Counted from the first letter of the stretch, positions 55,992-63,509 are shown. The stretch: DNA of 64,000 nt from an uncultured Actinomycetes bacterium (GCA_963709345.1 CAVPVX010000004.1:160001-224000); one strand, 5' to 3'. Notes: a model not told the origin generated them from the letters alone. Numbers and translations are program-made.

Positions 55992-56640
55992 TCAGCTCGC
56001 CGCGCCGTCCTTGTCGTCGCTCGACGGGAACAGCTTGTCCTGATAGTAGCCGTCGGCCAGGTAGATCGCGGCCAGCGGGTTGTGGCCGAGGACCCTGTCC
56101 TTCGCGGCCAGAACCGTCACCGGGGCGCTTGAATGCTTGAAGAAGAGGCTGTCGTGCCCGACGCACAGCCCGAGCACGATGTTGAGCTGCGTTCCGGCGC
56201 GGGCAAGCGCGTGCGCTTGGCCGACGGGGTTGCACATGGCCTCGAACGATCCCGGCAGGAGTTTTTCGTCGTCGCCCAGCCCTATGAGGCTCTTGTCGAC
56301 GGCGCCGTTCTTGCAGAGCACCGAGTCGACGCTGAAGCCGTTGGCGACGAGCACCCGGCGAAGCACGGCCGCCTCGCTCTGGAGCCCGATGCAGAACGCC
56401 AGCCCAAGACTCTCGAAACCGCAGCGACGGGCGAAGGCCATGGTCTCCTCCACGCGCGTGAGGCGGCAGTAGCCCTCGGCCTCCACCCGAGCTGAGTTGC
56501 GGGCCAGCACGAGATCGTCCACGCTGTAGGCGTCGAGCGCCGGCGCCGGCGTCCGCGTCTGACGTTGGGCAGTGCGACGGGTACGTCGTCGCACCTTCTT
56601 CGTGGCAGGCGAGTCGCTTGCAGGCGGCACACTCGTACAT
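55992..56640 (-). CDS. DUF1847 domain Cys-rich protein (frameshift near 56545)
   Basis: CAAC..AC...CP N-terminus; TRVEE, AFCIGL, CK, MCNPVGQA, GLCVGHDSLF, KDRVLGHNP. Confidence 0.85.
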
Positions 56641-56815
56641 CGCGCTCCTCCCTTGCCGGGCGGCCCGGCTCTTCTACGGCGCGAGACTCCACGCTCCCTT
56701 CCCGATCGTGACTCTAGCACCCCGTGAAGTCGCGTGGCCTGGTCAACGCTTGGGCACGTACTCGCGCGGGAAGGCACCCTTCGACCTGCGATCTCGCGCG
56801 AAGGGAGCTCTTCTC

Positions 56816-57095: not shown

Positions 57096-58577
57096 CTAGT
57101 CCTCGAAGGCGCCGTCGTGCATGCCCGCGTAGGGCCTGCCCCAGCCGAAGTCGTCCCATTCGGTCGCGGTATAGGTCATGCTCGCCGTGAGCGGCTCGCC
57201 GAGGGACTCGAGATGCGCCTTGCTCGGGTGCATGACAAACGGCTCGGCCTTGTGGCGGCTGCTCGCCGTGTCCCACTGGGCCTCGGGGATCTCGTCGCAC
57301 TTGCGCAGCAGGAGGTCCCACTCGAAGTCGACCCACTCCTGCAGTTGCTCCAGGAGCTGCTCGTTGCCGGGCAGTGCCATGTGCGTGAAGCGGCCTTGGC
57401 GCTCGAGCCAGGCGCCGAGCGGCTGCTTGTGCCGCGGCCGGTAGGTCAGACGGTACTTGCCGTCGGCGACCTCGAAGAGCGGCCAGTAGCAGCAATCGGT
57501 CGCGAGACGCGACAGCTCGATGCCCTCGTCGTTCTCGGTGCGCCAGCCGCGGGGACAGGGCGAGAGGACGTTGAGGAAGGTGGGCCCCTCGATCGCCAGC
57601 GCCTTCGACGCCTTGTGCATGAGGTCCTGCGGGTCGTGCGGCGAGGACTGAGCCACGTAGGGTAGTCGGTGCGCCACCATGATCTCGGTGAGGTTCTTGC
57701 TGTGACCCACCTTGCCCTGCTGGTCGGAGCCCACGGGGCTCGTCGTCGTCCAGGCGCCGTGTGGGGTGGCGCTGGAGCGCTGGAAACCCGTGTTCATATA
57801 GGCGCCGTTGTCGTAACAGACGTAGAGCATGTCGTGACCGCGGTCCATCGCGCCCGAGAGCGACTGCAGGCCGATGTCGTAGGTGCCGCCGTCGCCGCCG
57901 AAGGCGATGAACTTCACCCGGTCCTCAAGCTTGCCGCGCTTGCGCAACGCGCGGAAGGCCGTCTCGACGCCGGAGAGCGTGGCGGCCGCGTTCTCGAAGT
58001 TGGTGTGGATGTAGCTGCCCTTCCAGGCGGTGTAGGGGTAGCGCGTCGTCGAGACCTCGAGGCAGCCGGTGGCGCCGGAGACGACGTGGTGGCTGTCGAC
58101 CTGTGAGAGGACCTGGTTCACGACGATGGAGGCGCCACAGCCGCTGCAGAGGCCGTGGCCGCTCGAAAGGCGCGGCGGCTTCTTGGCCAGCTCATGCACG
58201 CTGCGCCGATGCTCGTAGTACAGCTCGGTAGGCACGAGGGCGTCGAACTTGCATGCCTCGACGCAGTGCCCGCAGGTCATGCAGCGGCGCTCGTCGAGGG
58301 TGATCGTGCCGGCGAAATGGCGGTCCTTTCCCCTGCCGTGTGTGCGCGAGGGGTCGCGGCGCACGTCGATGCACTCCACCGGGCACACCTTCTTGCAGGC
58401 GCCGCAGAAGGTGCAGGTGTGGCCGCCGCCGGGCTTGGGCGCGAGGTCGAAGAGGCCCGTCCCGTGGAGCTTGTGGACGAGGTCGCGTACGGCGTAGCTG
58501 TTCTCGGGGATGGGGTGGCCGTACGTGAGGGCTTGCGTGTCGGCGGCATCAGTGGGGGTCTTTGGCCTCGCGCTCAT
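57096..58577 (-). CDS. porB: 2-oxoacid:ferredoxin oxidoreductase beta subunit fused to an N-terminal 2x[4Fe-4S] domain
   Basis: CTFCGACKKVCP and CMTCGHCVEAC, then GHGLCSGCG, TGCLEV, GGDGGTYDIG, YDNGAYMNTG, PCPRGW. Confidence 0.88.
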   Translation of the reverse strand: MSARPKTPTDAADTQALTYGHPIPENSYAVRDLVHKLHGTGLFDLAPKPGGGHTCTFCGACKKVCPVECIDVRRDPSRTHGRGKDRHFAGTITLDERRCMTCGHCVEACKFDALVPTELYYEHRRSVHELAKKPPRLSSGHGLCSGCGASIVVNQVLSQVDSHHVVSGATGCLEVSTTRYPYTAWKGSYIHTNFENAAATLSGVETAFRALRKRGKLEDRVKFIAFGGDGGTYDIGLQSLSGAMDRGHDMLYVCYDNGAYMNTGFQRSSATPHGAWTTTSPVGSDQQGKVGHSKNLTEIMVAHRLPYVAQSSPHDPQDLMHKASKALAIEGPTFLNVLSPCPRGWRTENDEGIELSRLATDCCYWPLFEVADGKYRLTYRPRHKQPLGAWLERQGRFTHMALPGNEQLLEQLQEWVDFEWDLLLRKCDEIPEAQWDTASSRHKAEPFVMHPSKAHLESLGEPLTASMTYTATEWDDFGWGRPYAGMHDGAFED

Positions 58578-58600
58578 GTCGTCCTCGCCTTGATCGGTGA

Positions 58601-58621
58601 TGCGGACAAAGTTTGTCCGCA
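58601..58621. promoter_or_regulatory. Perfect palindrome, putative operator
   Basis: TGCGGACAAA-G-TTTGTCCGCA, 24 nt upstream of the porB ATG. Confidence 0.7.
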
Positions 58622-58754
58622 ATTGGGGGGAAGTTGAAAAGCTACCAAAAGTGCGACGCCCCTACAAGCGTGGCAGGCGTTCGCCGGGCATGCGGCTCAC
58701 GGGCGCGTGGGCGACGGTGGCGCCACGGCCGCGGTCTTCGGCTAGACTCGTAGG

Positions 58755-59766: not shown

Positions 59767-60445
59767 GTGGCCAGCCTCAAGGGCAGCAAGACCGAGCAGA
59801 ACCTCCTCAAGGCGTTCGCCGGCGAGAGCCAGGCGCGCAACCGCTACACGTTCTACGCCAGATCGGCGCAAGCAGGAAGGCTACGAACAGATCGGCGCGA
59901 TCTTCCTCGAGACCGCCGAGCACGAGCGCCAGCATGCCAAGCGCTTCTTCAAGCATCTCGAGGGCGGCGTGGTCGAGATCACCGCCTCGTATCCTGCCGG
60001 CCCGTTCGAAGGCAGCACGGCACAGCACCTCGCCGACGCCGCCGCCGGCGAGCACGAGGAGTGGGTAGATCTGTATCCGGCCTTCGCCGAGGTCGCCCAA
60101 GCGGAGGGCTTCAAGGACGTGGCCACCACCTTCCGCATGGTCGCCAAAGCCGAGGCGATGCACGAGGCGCGCTACCTCAAGCTGCGCGGCCAATGTGGAG
60201 GAGAGCGCGGTCTTCGAGAAGCCGGAGAAGGTCCGCTGGATGTGCCGCAAGTGCGGCTACATTCACGAGGGTCACCAAGGCGCTCCAAGGTCTGCCCGAC
60301 CTGCACGCACCCCCAGGCCTACCAGAATACGCGGCGACTTTGCGAGTCGACCGACGTGGCCTGGCCGACGGCTCGCCGTCTCGCCGGGCCGCCGGGGACG
60401 AGACGGGGCGGGAGGCCGGAAGGGCCGCCCGCCCCGTCGCCGTAA
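59767..60445 (+). CDS. rbr: Rubrerythrin (several frameshifts; 3' end uncertain)
   Basis: SLKGSKTEQNLLKAFAGESQARNRY, ERQHAK, GEHEE, EAMHE, WMCRKCGY, CPTCTHPQAY spread over three frames. Confidence 0.88.
60402..60438. terminator. Hairpin between convergent rbr and iscU (repeat family)
   Basis: GACGGGGCGGGAGGCC-GGAAG-GGCCGCCCGCCCCGTC. Confidence 0.6.
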
Positions 60446-60479: not shown

Positions 60480-61283
60480 CTACTCGAGCACCACGAACGC
60501 GTCCGCAGTCAGCTCGTATTCCTCGTCTTCGTTCAAGTCGTGCACGCGTATCCGCTCGAGCTCGCCTTCGCCGAGCAGCTCGAGCGGCTGCGCCTCAGCC
60601 AGGATCTTGACGTCGCTGAGGCGCAGGGCCGAGCGCACCGCGGGGCTCACGCTCGGCTCCTTGCCGGTCGTCATCAGCACTACGCGCCCGGTGTGGTCTG
60701 TGAGGTCCATGGCCAGCTGCGCGGCGTGGTCGCCGGTGTCGAGCACGACGACACGTTGGTCGGCGAGGTCGGCGAGATCGTCCACCTTGCGGTAGAGACC
60801 CTTGCTCTCGTAGTCGTCCAGCTTCTGGATCTCGATCTCCGCAACGGCTGCCGGGACTGGGTGGCACGACTTCTCGATCGGCGTCGTGGTCGCGTCCTCC
60901 GGCTTGATGCCCTCGCGCCAATTCTTGATCGCCTCGTGCAACGCATCGGCGGCCAGGTTGCTGCAGTGCATCTTGATCGGCGGCAGGCCGTCGAGTGCGT
61001 CGGCGACGTCGCCGCGACTCACCTTGAGCGCCTCGTCGAGCTGCATGCCGACGACGAGCTCGGTGATCATGCTCGAGGTCGCGACGGCGGAGCCGCAGCC
61101 GAAGGTCTGGAACTTGATCTCCTTGATGCGGTCGTCCTCGACGTCGATGTAGATGTCCATCATGTCGCCGCAGACGGGGTTGCCCACGCGGCCGACGGCG
61201 ACGTTGGGGCCTTCCAGCGTGCCCACGTTCCGGGGGTTGCGGAAGTGCTCGAGGGTCTTCTCGCTGTACTGCGTCGATTTCAT
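60480..61283 (-). CDS. iscU: IscU/NifU-N scaffold fused to a degenerate TrxR-like NAD(P)-binding domain
   Basis: HFRNPRNVG, GNPVCGD, GCGSA, LPPIKMHC; C-terminal 'RVVVLDTGDHA...VVLM...ELLGEGELERIRVHD...ELTADAFVV'. Confidence 0.88.
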   Translation of the reverse strand: MKSTQYSEKTLEHFRNPRNVGTLEGPNVAVGRVGNPVCGDMMDIYIDVEDDRIKEIKFQTFGCGSAVATSSMITELVVGMQLDEALKVSRGDVADALDGLPPIKMHCSNLAADALHEAIKNWREGIKPEDATTTPIEKSCHPVPAAVAEIEIQKLDDYESKGLYRKVDDLADLADQRVVVLDTGDHAAQLAMDLTDHTGRVVLMTTGKEPSVSPAVRSALRLSDVKILAEAQPLELLGEGELERIRVHDLNEDEEYELTADAFVVLE

Positions 61284-61318
61284 CGTCAGGCGCCTTTCGG
61301 ATCAGATGGTCGCGGCCG

Positions 61319-62560
61319 TCACGAGGTCGCGGGAGCGTGTGTCTTGTAGAGGGGCGAGAGGGCGCGGAGCCGGGCGATCACGCCGGGGAGTACGGCCATG
61401 ATGCGCTCGACGTCGTCCACGGTGCTCCAGCGCCCGAAGGTGAACTCGAGCGAGCCGTGTGCCTCCTCGTGCAGCAGCCCGCACGAGATGAGCGTGTGCG
61501 ACGGCTCCAGCGTCTTGGAACTGCAGGCGGAGCCCGTGGACGCGGCGATGCCCTCGTCGCGCAGCGACAGGATCATCGCCTCGCCCTCGACCGCGTCGAA
61601 GCGGAAGTGGGCGTTGTTCGGCAGCCGCTCCTCGGGGTGGCCGTTCAGGTGTGAGTCGGGGATCTCGGCCAGCACGCGCTCGACCAGTCGATCGCGGATC
61701 GCCCGGATGCGCGACACCTCGGTCTCCATGTCCGCGCCCATGATCTCGGCCGCCGCGGCCATGCCGGCGATGCTCGCCAGATCTTCGCTGCCGGAGCGCA
61801 AGCCTCGCTCCTGGCCTCCGCCCAGCAGAACGGGTGCGATCTGCACGCCCTTCCGTACGTAGAGCGCACCGAGACCGCGGGGGCCGTACAGGTCGTTGCT
61901 CGAGAGGCTGAGGAGGTCGACCGGCACGGCGTTCATGTCGATCGGCAGCAGGCCTTCTGCGGCGACGGCGTCGCTGTGCAAGGCGATGCCCGTGCCGTCG
62001 AGCATCTCGGCGATCGCGGCGATGGGCTGGACGGTGCCGATCTCGCTGCTTGCCCACTGCACCGAGACGAGGATCGTCTCGTCGGTGATGCGGGCGCGCA
62101 GCTTCTTCGGCGACACGCGCCCGTACAGATCGATCGGCACGCGAGTGACGCGGAACCCGTTCTTCTCGAGGTACTTGGCGATGTTGAGGATGCTGATGTG
62201 CTCGGCCTCACTGATGATCACGTGGTCGCCCTTGCGCTTGTTGCGCAGGGCGTAGCCGACGACCCCCAGGTTGGTGGCTTCGGTGGCCCCTCCGGTGAAG
62301 ACGATCTCGCGCGGCTCGGCGCCGAAGAACGCGGCGACCCTGCCGCGCGCCTCCTCGAGCGCCTCGGTCGCCACGTCGCCCACGGTGTGCAGCGAGGCGG
62401 CGTTGCCGAACTTCTCCGTCAGGTACGGCAGCATGGCCTCGACCACTCGCGGGTCGACGGGTTTCGCCGACTGGTAGTCGGCGTAGACGACGCCGGCGCG
62501 GGCCAGCGCCTTGCCGGGGTCGGCCAGGGTGACCTGGTGGTCGGTGCTTGCGGCGGTCAC
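61319..62560 (-). CDS. iscS: IscS/NifS-like protein lacking the PLP-binding lysine
   Basis: FTGGATEA, EH, GGGQERGLRSG, GSACSS present; SAHK is replaced by SSND. Confidence 0.9.
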   Translation of the reverse strand: MTAASTDHQVTLADPGKALARAGVVYADYQSAKPVDPRVVEAMLPYLTEKFGNAASLHTVGDVATEALEEARGRVAAFFGAEPREIVFTGGATEATNLGVVGYALRNKRKGDHVIISEAEHISILNIAKYLEKNGFRVTRVPIDLYGRVSPKKLRARITDETILVSVQWASSEIGTVQPIAAIAEMLDGTGIALHSDAVAAEGLLPIDMNAVPVDLLSLSSNDLYGPRGLGALYVRKGVQIAPVLLGGGQERGLRSGSEDLASIAGMAAAAEIMGADMETEVSRIRAIRDRLVERVLAEIPDSHLNGHPEERLPNNAHFRFDAVEGEAMILSLRDEGIAASTGSACSSKTLEPSHTLISCGLLHEEAHGSLEFTFGRWSTVDDVERIMAVLPGVIARLRALSPLYKTHAPATS

Positions 62561-62570
62561 CGGCCCGCCC

Positions 62571-62933
62571 TCAGAACCACATCGTCGCGTCGGCGTCCAA
62601 GGCGAGGTCGTTGAGCGTCGCCGCGCCGACGATCTTGACGCCGTCGATCAGCTCGACCGTCTCCCAGCCGAGCATCTGCTTGGAGGCTTCGCACACGTAC
62701 ACCGGGATGCCCATGTCGATGGTCTTCCGGAGCATCTCGGCGACGCTGGGGAAGCTGCCCATCTGCATCTTCTCCGCCTCGCCGGGCTTGAGCACCGTGA
62801 GACTCACGCCGAGGTAGTAGACGGCCGGGTCGATACCCATGGCCTTGGCGCTCTGGGCGAGCACGAGGGGCGAATACTGTCGCTCGGGGGAGTCGCTGGT
62901 CTGCACGTAGAGGATGTTCTTTTCGTCGGCCAT
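62571..62933 (-). CDS. DsrE/DsrF-like protein
   Basis: PLVLA..AKAM, VYVCEAS, IVGAATL. Confidence 0.85.
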   Translation of the reverse strand: MADEKNILYVQTSDSPERQYSPLVLAQSAKAMGIDPAVYYLGVSLTVLKPGEAEKMQMGSFPSVAEMLRKTIDMGIPVYVCEASKQMLGWETVELIDGVKIVGAATLNDLALDADATMWF

Positions 62934-62968
62934 GATGGTCCTTTCGGCGGTCGCGGTCCGGTGGCGGT

Positions 62969-63211
62969 CTACTTGAGCCGGCGGAGCAGGATGCGCAACT
63001 CGCCGCCCTCGTTCTCGAGCTCGACGACCTCGTGGCCTGCGCGCTTGGCGAAGCGCTTCAGGTCTTCTTCGGCGGCGGGGTCGTCGGCGATCACTTCAAG
63101 CACTTCGCCGATCTCTATCGCGTCGATGTTCTCGCGGGTCTGGAAGAGCGGCTCAGGGCAGTAGAGCCCGATGCAGTCGAGTGTGCGTGCGGGCTTCGGT
63201 TCGTCTGCCAT
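62969..63211 (-). CDS. tusA: TusA/SirA family sulfur carrier
   Basis: LDCIGLYCPEP, LEVIADDPAAEED. Confidence 0.92.
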   Translation of the reverse strand: MADEPKPARTLDCIGLYCPEPLFQTRENIDAIEIGEVLEVIADDPAAEEDLKRFAKRAGHEVVELENEGGELRILLRRLK

Positions 63212-63509
63212 CTGGTCTCCTTTCGAGTTTGAGGAGGCCGTAGCTCTCCCTCCAGCGCTGTCTATACCCGACCAGAGCAGTTGGTATTCACCAGGCGGCC
63301 GAGCTCCCCGGCACGGCTGGGCTTTCGCACTCGGCGTCGCCGGTCTGGCCGGGCAGACACGTACGGGTCGAGGTTGGTGCTGAGCTGTCTGTATCACTCC
63401 GCTCTGGCGTGCAGGGTCGCGCTGTCGCGGTCACTCCGCATAGCCACCGGAACGCGTCCGCGTCGATCTCGAGGCAAGTCGTCACGGTCGTCTCGTTGCG
63501 GCGACGGAG

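Follow-up and report, generated by a model that had tools for sequence, protein, structure and literature searches.

A tusA-dsrE-iscS*-iscU cassette with a lysine-less IscS of the Archaeoglobus fulgidus type: a candidate iron-sulfur assembly module shared by bacteria and archaea

In Archaeoglobus fulgidus, the IscS homolog IscS2 carries Asp199 at the site of the catalytic lysine, holds pyridoxamine phosphate (PMP) and lacks desulfurase activity, and one of its cysteines serves as a ligand of the [2Fe-2S] cluster on the partner IscU, as described in the accessible parts of two sources (PMC8918507; PMC7585200). The origin of the sulfur in this iron-sulfur (Fe-S) cluster is treated there as an open question, with sulfide as the proposed source. 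IscS1 of Methanosarcina acetivorans likewise lacks the lysine (PMC7585200, same parts), and the MIS system is described, in the available text of PMC13066941, as being without carrier proteins. In sulfur oxidizers, sHdr-type DsrE3 and TusA, carriers of persulfide or thiosulfonate, are thought to pass sulfane sulfur between them (PMC11094781, available text). Here, we analysed a four-gene cassette, tusA-dsrE-iscS*-iscU, at one end of a 64,000-nucleotide stretch of DNA from an uncultured Actinomycetes bacterium (GCA_963709345.1, CAVPVX010000004.1:160001-224000; referred to as the window). The asterisk marks an IscS without the Schiff-base lysine for pyridoxal phosphate (PLP). With moderate confidence, we favor the view that the cassette encodes an accessory module for Fe-S assembly or repair, which belongs to the type of A. 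fulgidus IscS2-IscU, spreads horizontally and is fed by a persulfide relay. A first-pass annotation of the window had proposed a cysteine-independent system supplied with inorganic sulfur or selenium. Its assignment to the A. fulgidus type and the linkage of the genes stood, and its account of the A. fulgidus protein (Asp for Lys, inactive, Cys ligand) agrees with the accessible parts of PMC8918507 and PMC7585200; cysteine independence and selenium were not supported.

Loss of catalytic residues in IscS* and retention of cysteines in the cassette

IscS* is a member of aminotransferase class V and of its NifS/IscS branch by sequence and fold. Among the NCBIfam models those for NifS/IscS were nearest, yet the protein remained under every equivalog cut-off (TIGR03402, 449.6 vs 530.75; TIGR02006, 370.8 vs 643.2). 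The best match in the PDB was A. fulgidus IscS2 (4eb5, also 4eb7 and 4hvk; 467 bits, E 3.8e-139), with matches to IscS/NFS1 structures spanning 300-467 bits and E. coli IscS at 320 bits. The SxHK motif of the Schiff-base lysine reads SSND (residues 220-223) and places Asp223 at the lysine site, the DAxQ motif reads DAVA (residues 197-200) with Ala200 standing for Gln, and the NNE of E. coli IscS reads SSE (residues 171-173). In SLEF (residues 370-373), Glu372 replaces the substrate-binding Arg. The loop GSACSS (residues 343-348) is present with its Cys346, and Lys349 follows three residues after this cysteine (C-S-S-K). Residue alignment to E. coli IscS (3lvj; 'sgHKiyg', 'DAtQsvg', 'vNNEig' and 'ssiRFs') confirmed which residues had changed, and alignment to A. 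fulgidus IscS2 (4eb5; 'ssNDiyg', 'DAtAsvg' and 'hgtlLLt') showed that the Asp at the lysine site is shared. Judged by sequence, IscS* is a member of the lysine-less IscS2 type of A. fulgidus. The best match to this inactive protein and the shared SSND motif are counted in favor of the module proposed above.

Conservation within the cassette clade was followed over 76 rows, i.e., the window protein and 75 orthologs. Asn222, Ala200 and Cys346 were kept in 76/76 rows, Asp223 in 74/76 and Glu372 in 70/76. The cofactor-stacking His121 and the N1-binding Asp197 were each found in 76/76. Lys349 is invariant as well (76/76) and also occurs in A. fulgidus IscS2; Gly stands at this position in 75/129 lysine-bearing representatives of the family. 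Pairwise comparisons showed purifying selection on each of the four genes, with a ratio of nonsynonymous to synonymous substitution rates (dN/dS) of 0.10-0.25 for tusA, dsrE and iscU. For iscS* the ratio was 0.15-0.22 in 10/10 comparisons, thus the gene is not decaying. Conservation over the 76 rows and this ratio also show that the substitutions are not sequencing errors. The first-pass annotation was further exact to the codon for SSND, DAVA, SSE, SLEF and GSACSS (Table 1), and open reading frames and Pfam assignments agree with its description of four closely packed genes on one strand. They are all encoded on the minus strand, at the window's end, with spacers of 35, 10 and 35 nucleotides (nt) from tusA to iscU.

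The loss of the lysine does not stand alone. Among the 150 best cluster representatives at 50% identity, the lysine was present in 129 and absent in 21, and other lysine-less lineages of this set carry T, S, Q, R and others at this position. After four fragments had been dropped, 17 lysine-less representatives were compared with the 129 lysine-bearing ones. The Gln of DAxQ was kept in 1/17 of the former vs 125/129 of the latter, and the substrate Arg in 3/17 vs 127/129. For the loop Cys the counts were 17/17 vs 128/129, for the stacking His 14/17 vs 129/129 and for the N1-binding Asp 17/17 vs 128/129. In these alignments the residue losses of lysine-less IscS are a syndrome, and therefore PLP chemistry appears to have been abandoned while the cysteine loop was retained. 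One might still argue that IscS* is an enzyme that converts a sulfur compound in some other way, with another general base or with bound PMP or PLP. The invariance of His121, Asp197 and the clade-specific Lys349 next to Cys346 would fit such an activity, and A. fulgidus IscS still binds PMP (PMC8918507, available text). However, the same text reports that A. fulgidus IscS2 is without desulfurase activity and that its D199K variant likewise holds PMP, and in the cassette clade the substrate Arg and the Gln of DAxQ have been exchanged for Glu and Ala at the frequencies given above. We consider a remaining enzymatic activity extremely improbable.

Both putative carriers keep their cysteines. TusA has the TusA fold with the CPxP cysteine and is a member of family PF01206. 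Among solved structures it is closest to E. coli TusA (1dcj, 3lvj_C), and by score it is not an E. coli TusA equivalog (NF001423, 59 bits vs a cut-off of 78). Cys18 of the CPxP motif aligns to the active Cys19 of E. coli TusA. The additional Cys13, at a position where the E. coli protein has Ala, gives the motif DCxGLxCPxP. Cys18 was kept in 77/77 rows and Cys13 in 75/77. DsrE is a single-domain protein with one cysteine only, Cys81 (VCEASKQMLGW), which aligns with the cysteine of the closest solved relative, the DsrE/DsrF-like 3mc3, and was kept in 76/76 rows. DsrE is strikingly well conserved, its mean column identity reaching 81% in a set of 27 bacterial and archaeal sequences. The protein falls outside the named subtype DsrE2 (NF047629, 35 bits for a partial match, cut-off 210).

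In IscU, the ligands Cys38, Asp40, Cys63, His106 and Cys107 were kept in 78/78 rows. Foldseek matched the scaffold domain to IscU 7c8m (E 3.6e-16) and to A. fulgidus IscU (4eb5_C), and the score with TIGR03419 was slightly below the cut-off (183.1 vs 187.9). The conservation of all carrier and ligand cysteines is likewise counted for the persulfide-fed module. A disordered linker (residues 136-149) joins the scaffold domain to a C-terminal tail; the AlphaFold2 model has a mean predicted local distance difference test score (pLDDT) of 83. In this model the tail adopts the NAD(P)H-binding domain fold of thioredoxin reductase (TrxR)-type flavoproteins. The Foldseek matches to TrxR-type proteins range from E 1.5e-10 to 2e-9 with 117-129 aligned columns and include ferredoxin-NADP+ oxidoreductase 3lzw (E 1.5e-10, 125 columns), TrxR 2q7v and AhpF 1hyu. 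TIGR01292 matches residues 173-263 with 29 bits. Canonical TrxR proteins possess a flavin adenine dinucleotide (FAD) domain, a GxGxxG/A dinucleotide motif and a redox CxxC. All three are absent from the tail: the protein stops behind this single domain, the dinucleotide-motif site reads LDTGDHAA (D-x-G-D), and no conserved cysteine is present. The tail is probably a second pseudo-enzyme module with a docking or regulatory function, not a reductase.

We infer from these features how the four proteins might bind each other and in which direction sulfur might flow. IscS* would be non-enzymatic and would act as a structural partner of IscU. Cys346 in its flexible loop may serve as persulfide acceptor and as fourth cluster ligand, as in 4eb5. 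Protein-bound persulfide would enter via Cys18 of TusA and Cys81 of DsrE, encoded in the same operon, and may pass from these carriers to Cys346 of IscS* and/or to IscU. The carriers could receive their sulfur from cysteine via the canonical IscS or from inorganic sulfane sulfur. The module would probably support Fe-S supply under oxygen or metal stress and not serve housekeeping. A complex prediction of IscS* and TusA with DsrE as partner, run without controls, gave scores of 0.26 and 0.19 (mark 0.32), which weigh neither for nor against binding.

Table 1. Positions of the cassette genes, their key codons and nearby features in the window.
Feature	Position	Strand	Product or residue	Assignment or remark
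tusA	62969-63211	minus	80 aa	Pfam PF01206, 87.2 bits
dsrE	62571-62933	minus	120 aa	Pfam PF02635, 54.2 bits (cut-off 22.7)
iscS*	61319-62560	minus	413 aa, GTG start	PF00266 Aminotran_5, 225 bits (cut-off 21.5)
iscU, whole gene	60480-61283	minus	267 aa	
IscU scaffold domain	60894-61283	minus	aa 1-130	PF01592 NifU_N, 151 bits
IscU C-terminal tail	60483-60836	minus	about aa 150-267	NCBIfam TIGR01292, AlphaFold2 and Foldseek
TusA Cys18 codon	63158-63160	minus	Cys18	CPxP motif
TusA Cys13 codon	63173-63175	minus	Cys13	second cysteine
DsrE Cys81 codon	62691-62693	minus	Cys81	sole cysteine
IscS* Asp223 codon	61892-61894	minus	Asp223	PLP lysine site
IscS* Cys346 codon	61523-61525	minus	Cys346	loop cysteine
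IscS* Lys349 codon	61514-61516	minus	Lys349	C-S-S-K
IscS* Glu372 codon	61445-61447	minus	Glu372	substrate Arg site
Operator-like palindrome	63264-63287	no strand	ATACC-N14-GGTAT	53-76 nt upstream of tusA start
Rubrerythrin gene	59770-60330	plus		parts in three frames
TPP-enzyme gene	57096-58622	minus	beta-type subunit	with 4Fe-4S dicluster domain
DUF1847 gene	55995-56813	minus	DUF1847 protein	few kb from cassette

Conservation of the linkage in bacteria and archaea

One genome per species was scanned for relatives, and the best 80 of 242 were analysed. In 70 of these 80 loci, tusA, dsrE, iscS*, the IscU domain and the IscU tail are encoded on one strand and in one order, and 7 more are interrupted by contig ends. 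The tail was present in 74 loci (5 further loci are cut by contig ends) and was too divergent for tblastn in one (L085). iscU adjoins iscS* in 79 of the 80, the lone exception being cut by a contig end. The first-pass annotation had named a missing linkage of lysine-less IscS to tusA and dsrE as a finding that would speak against it; the linkage to tusA, dsrE and the extended iscU in these 70 loci is instead strongly conserved. Sixty loci belong to Actinomycetota, mostly Thermoleophilia. The other 20 come from Deltaproteobacteria/Thermodesulfobacteriota, Zixiibacteriota, WOR-3, Aminicenantes, Deferrimicrobium, one unclassified bacterium and five archaea. Asgard and other archaea are represented among the latter, including Promethearchaeum syntrophicum MK-D1.

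IscS* identity falls to about 46-50% across the cassette clade. In the 58-row tree of IscS*, the archaeal rows are nested among bacterial ones inside a cassette clade with 100% support. Within the phylum of the host, cassette-type DsrE was found in 7/401 sampled genomes, including that of the window. The mixed bacterial and archaeal tree and the rarity in the phylum are in agreement with horizontal spread of an accessory module.

Two archaeal samples were read in addition. In one archaeal phylum (301 genomes, 30 best loci), tusA and/or dsrE were located directly upstream in 14/15 lysine-less loci vs 0/15 lysine-bearing loci (S-x-H-K). Two tusA-iscS* pairs in this sample are without iscU (L095 and L103). 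In another archaeal class (151 genomes sampled, the 12 best loci read, L121-L132), the lysine was missing in 12/12, dsrE was present in 12/12 and tusA in 10/12. Downstream of these 12 loci, one subtype has a NADPH-dependent flavin mononucleotide (FMN) reductase and a rubrerythrin, and the other subtype a large MG2-domain protein. No locus in the two archaeal searches was closer to 4eb5 than the window protein (434-444 vs 467 bits).

Several points weigh against the module as we propose it. Every locus, in the scan as in the two archaeal samples, was taken because it ranked among the top matches to a query without the lysine, and the samples are biased by this. Two of the best 80 loci (L048 and L049) possess tusA but no dsrE, and one lysine-less locus in a 5.5-Mb archaeal genome (L107) has iscU but neither tusA nor dsrE. 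In the archaeal class, iscU was absent within 1.5-kb flanks in 12/12 loci; therefore, IscU may not be the sole or obligatory client. The lysine-less state changes once on the 58-row tree, which amounts to one independent pair, and the association with tusA and dsrE is therefore a feature of a clade that has persisted over deep divergence and many transfers, not repeated co-evolution. A role in stress is suggested by the gene neighborhood alone. In E. coli, IscS passes its sulfur on to TusA, which runs counter to the direction proposed here, and TusA is a competitor of IscU for IscS (PMC11302665, available text).

The loci without iscU raise the question of whether TusA, DsrE and the cysteine loop of IscS* form a sulfur-trafficking hub for several acceptors, such as thio-cofactors or tRNA thiolation, with IscU as one client or as a regulator. 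The trio without adjacent iscU in the archaeal class and the two tusA-iscS* pairs would be expected from such a hub, and the E. coli IscS-TusA-TusBCD relay for 2-thiouridine is likewise built from TusA and a DsrE-family protein (PMC13066941, available text). In the clade of the window, however, iscU is adjacent in 79 of the best 80 loci. Moreover, thiolation enzymes (MnmA, ThiI, Ncs6-type) were not among the 71 proteins that flank the cassette in 15 diverse loci, and the MnmA of the host is encoded beside the canonical IscS-IscU. We judge a hub to be quite unlikely.

Host genome, neighboring genes and possible sulfur sources

The host assembly comprises 3.1 Mb and is 98% complete. On another contig it contains a canonical operon, Rrf2-IscS-IscU-MnmA, with a lysine-bearing IscS (SGHK, DAVQ, SLRL) and an IscU of 144 residues. 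One SUFBD-type (SufB-like) gene, a second tusA and a weak second dsrE are also present, and further, higher-scoring Aminotran_5 genes were detected in 5/5 other cassette genomes checked. Thus, the cassette is an addition to the normal systems. By analogy to E. coli, where IscS does so, the canonical IscS could load TusA from cysteine. The proposed independence from cysteine is therefore not supported by the host genome, which keeps a lysine-bearing IscS operon and a SUFBD gene.

Nevertheless, TusA and DsrE may take up inorganic sulfur (sulfide-derived persulfide, polysulfide or thiosulfate), or selenium, and pass it to the non-catalytic IscS*-IscU scaffold with no desulfurase involved. IscS* itself cannot be the sulfur source, and many cassette hosts, judged by record titles and the groups they belong to, presumably are anaerobic. 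Pairs of DsrE and TusA carry sulfane sulfur in sulfur oxidizers (PMC11094781), and sulfide-fed Fe-S assembly is known for a minimal SUF system (bioRxiv 10.1101/2024.03.20.586028; PMC13066941), each according to the available text of these sources; the bioRxiv study reports that the minimal SUF system, supplied with inorganic sulfide, can stand in for ISC and SUF in E. coli. Against this stand the intact IscS of the host and the additional Aminotran_5 genes in the other genomes; since canonical desulfurases are present, sulfur derived from cysteine via TusA is equally possible. An exclusively inorganic supply is in our opinion rather unlikely. The selenium variant, which the first-pass annotation had mentioned in passing, was rejected: selD is located on a separate contig, 0/71 of the flanking proteins from the 15 diverse loci match a selenium family, and YedF models score under the TusA model for the window tusA. 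The host selD (C1:139777-140595) contains one in-frame TGA and thus probably encodes a selenoprotein.

The genes that flank the cassette are repeatedly of oxygen- or metal-stress types across phyla (71 proteins, 15 loci). They encode several rubrerythrins, ferritin, desulfoferrodoxin, an ODP-type di-iron protein, AhpC, glutaredoxin and the catalytic chain of ferredoxin:thioredoxin reductase (FTR) fused to a rubredoxin-like domain. Heavy-metal P-type ATPases with HMA/YHS domains directly follow iscU in four loci of WOR-3 and Thermodesulfobacteriota/Deltaproteobacteria (L058, L074, L052 and L051), and a cation-efflux protein flanks the cassette in one Aminicenantes locus. A convergent rubrerythrin gene is found just downstream in the window, as it is in 28 of the best 80 loci. 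The sHdr, LbpA and rhodanese genes were not found in the 15 neighborhoods scanned. The cassette of WOR-3 loci is preceded on the same strand by genes for three rubrerythrins, a ferritin and a DUF1122 protein. The rubrerythrin of the window has its N-terminus, its middle part and its rubredoxin-like CxxC part in three frames, which is due either to an indel error in the assembly or to a broken gene; the middle part is uninterrupted in 28 of the best 80 relative loci. At a distance of a few kb in the window, the gene for a thiamine pyrophosphate (TPP)-enzyme subunit is syntenic in 22 of the best 80 loci, and a DUF1847 gene is located there as well (Table 1).

Upstream of tusA, the operator-like palindrome shows conservation of at least 80% at both half-sites across 51 upstream regions of the Thermoleophilia type, and in one subgroup the palindrome is nearly perfect. 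A loose pattern of it has 2 sites in the genome vs 1.7 expected, and no regulon or regulator was found with it. A hairpin in the 5' leader of tusA (GGAGG...CCTCC) had a z-score of -0.88, with no consensus structure in 36 sequences and no Rfam match. Scans for a sigma-70 promoter and an intrinsic terminator found neither. Contigs from RNA libraries (at least 85% alike, i.e., sequences of relatives) cover all four genes in 4/4 runs from three studies, and one contig of 1974 nt spans iscU, iscS* and part of dsrE. None of them lies at 63296-63500, which may reflect a poorly conserved spacer. These contigs hint weakly at transcription, as such libraries can hold DNA. In the sequencing runs every holder's share was at most 0.21, and no habitat could be assigned.

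The stress-related neighbors could also mean that IscS*-IscU has no biosynthetic role and holds a cluster as a signal or as a reserve shielded from stress, while TusA and DsrE buffer reactive persulfide or metal-sulfide species under oxygen or copper stress. Such a sensor or store would match the recurrent genes for defense against reactive oxygen species, the ferritins and the heavy-metal P-type ATPases, the conserved palindrome and the accessory position of the module beside canonical systems. However, all assembly ligands of IscU, including Asp40 for a labile cluster, are kept in 78/78 rows as in working scaffolds, and a signaling output left no sign in the sequences. A function in sensing, storage or protection is therefore, to our mind, very unlikely.

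Finally, the observations might be joined into the picture of a distinct, self-contained Fe-S machine that moves between bacteria and archaea and in which IscS and the TrxR-type domain, both dead as enzymes, serve as scaffolding. DsrE and the two-cysteine TusA (Cys13/Cys18) would capture sulfane sulfur, and Cys13 of TusA would resolve the persulfide to sulfide on IscU, so that ferredoxin and desulfurase would be unneeded. The resulting TusA disulfide might be recycled by the glutaredoxin or FTR-like genes that adjoin the cassette in some phyla. If true, this system would be suited to oxygen or copper stress. We regard this composite as a whole as speculative and unlikely.

Comparison with described systems

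The accessory module that we favor is closest to A. fulgidus IscS2-IscU (4eb5, 4eb7, 4hvk; D199K variant 4r5f). Both share SSND, the Ala in DAxQ, the GSACSSK loop, a non-basic residue at the substrate Arg and an adjacent IscU with all ligands. They differ at the substrate Arg site, which is Leu in A. fulgidus and Glu in the window. In addition, the A. fulgidus IscU chain (4eb5_C) comprises 138 residues, whereas the IscU of the window bears an extra TrxR-like tail of 118 residues. Further differences are the bacterial host with a canonical IscS and the presence of tusA and dsrE in the operon. Our literature search, with most subscription journals outside its coverage, found no mention of sulfur carriers beside the A. 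fulgidus pair and no paper on tusA or dsrE joined to a lysine-less IscS; TusA has 0 occurrences in the available text of PMC7585200.

The E. coli IscS-TusA-TusBCD(-TusE-MnmA) relay (3lvj) has in common with the cassette a type-I IscS homolog, a TusA with E. coli TusA as closest solved relative and a DsrE-family protein, as TusD is a member of the DsrE family. However, E. coli IscS is an active donor; because the lysine is missing in IscS*, a flow cannot start from the window protein. DsrE of the window is a single protein of 120 residues and not a heterohexamer like TusBCD, its TusA has the additional Cys13, and TusE and MnmA are unlinked to the cassette. With the sHdr-type DsrE3 and TusA of sulfur oxidizers, the cassette shares a small DsrE with one active cysteine next to TusA, but the partner here is an Fe-S scaffold, and the sHdr-associated genes are missing from the neighborhoods scanned. 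MIS MisS-MisU and M. acetivorans IscS1-IscU1 have, by their description in the available text, a similar two-gene core of IscS- and IscU-like proteins without chaperones or ferredoxin; the carrier genes set the cassette apart from MIS as described there. With TrxR and TrxR-type ferredoxin-NADP+ oxidoreductases (e.g., 3lzw, 2q7v, 1hyu), the IscU tail shares the NAD(P)H-binding domain fold, but it differs by the lack of the FAD domain and CxxC and by D-x-G-D in place of the glycine motif.

The carrier pair, conserved across bacterial phyla and archaeal lineages, provides candidates for the sulfur supply of A. fulgidus-type systems, and with the carrier genes and the tail the question of the sulfur source therefore becomes directly testable. 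That distant bacteria and archaea share the cassette hints at a sulfur origin for such "dead-enzyme" systems, and the oxygen- and metal-stress genes linked to it point to a role in times of stress in these hosts. The cassette would widen the list of Fe-S biogenesis arrangements, and with IscS* and the TrxR-like tail it exemplifies how two pseudo-enzyme modules are maintained under strong selection. In summary, an IscS-IscU pair of the A. fulgidus type was known before; this study adds to it a pair of conserved carrier genes and an IscU tail of the pseudo-reductase kind.

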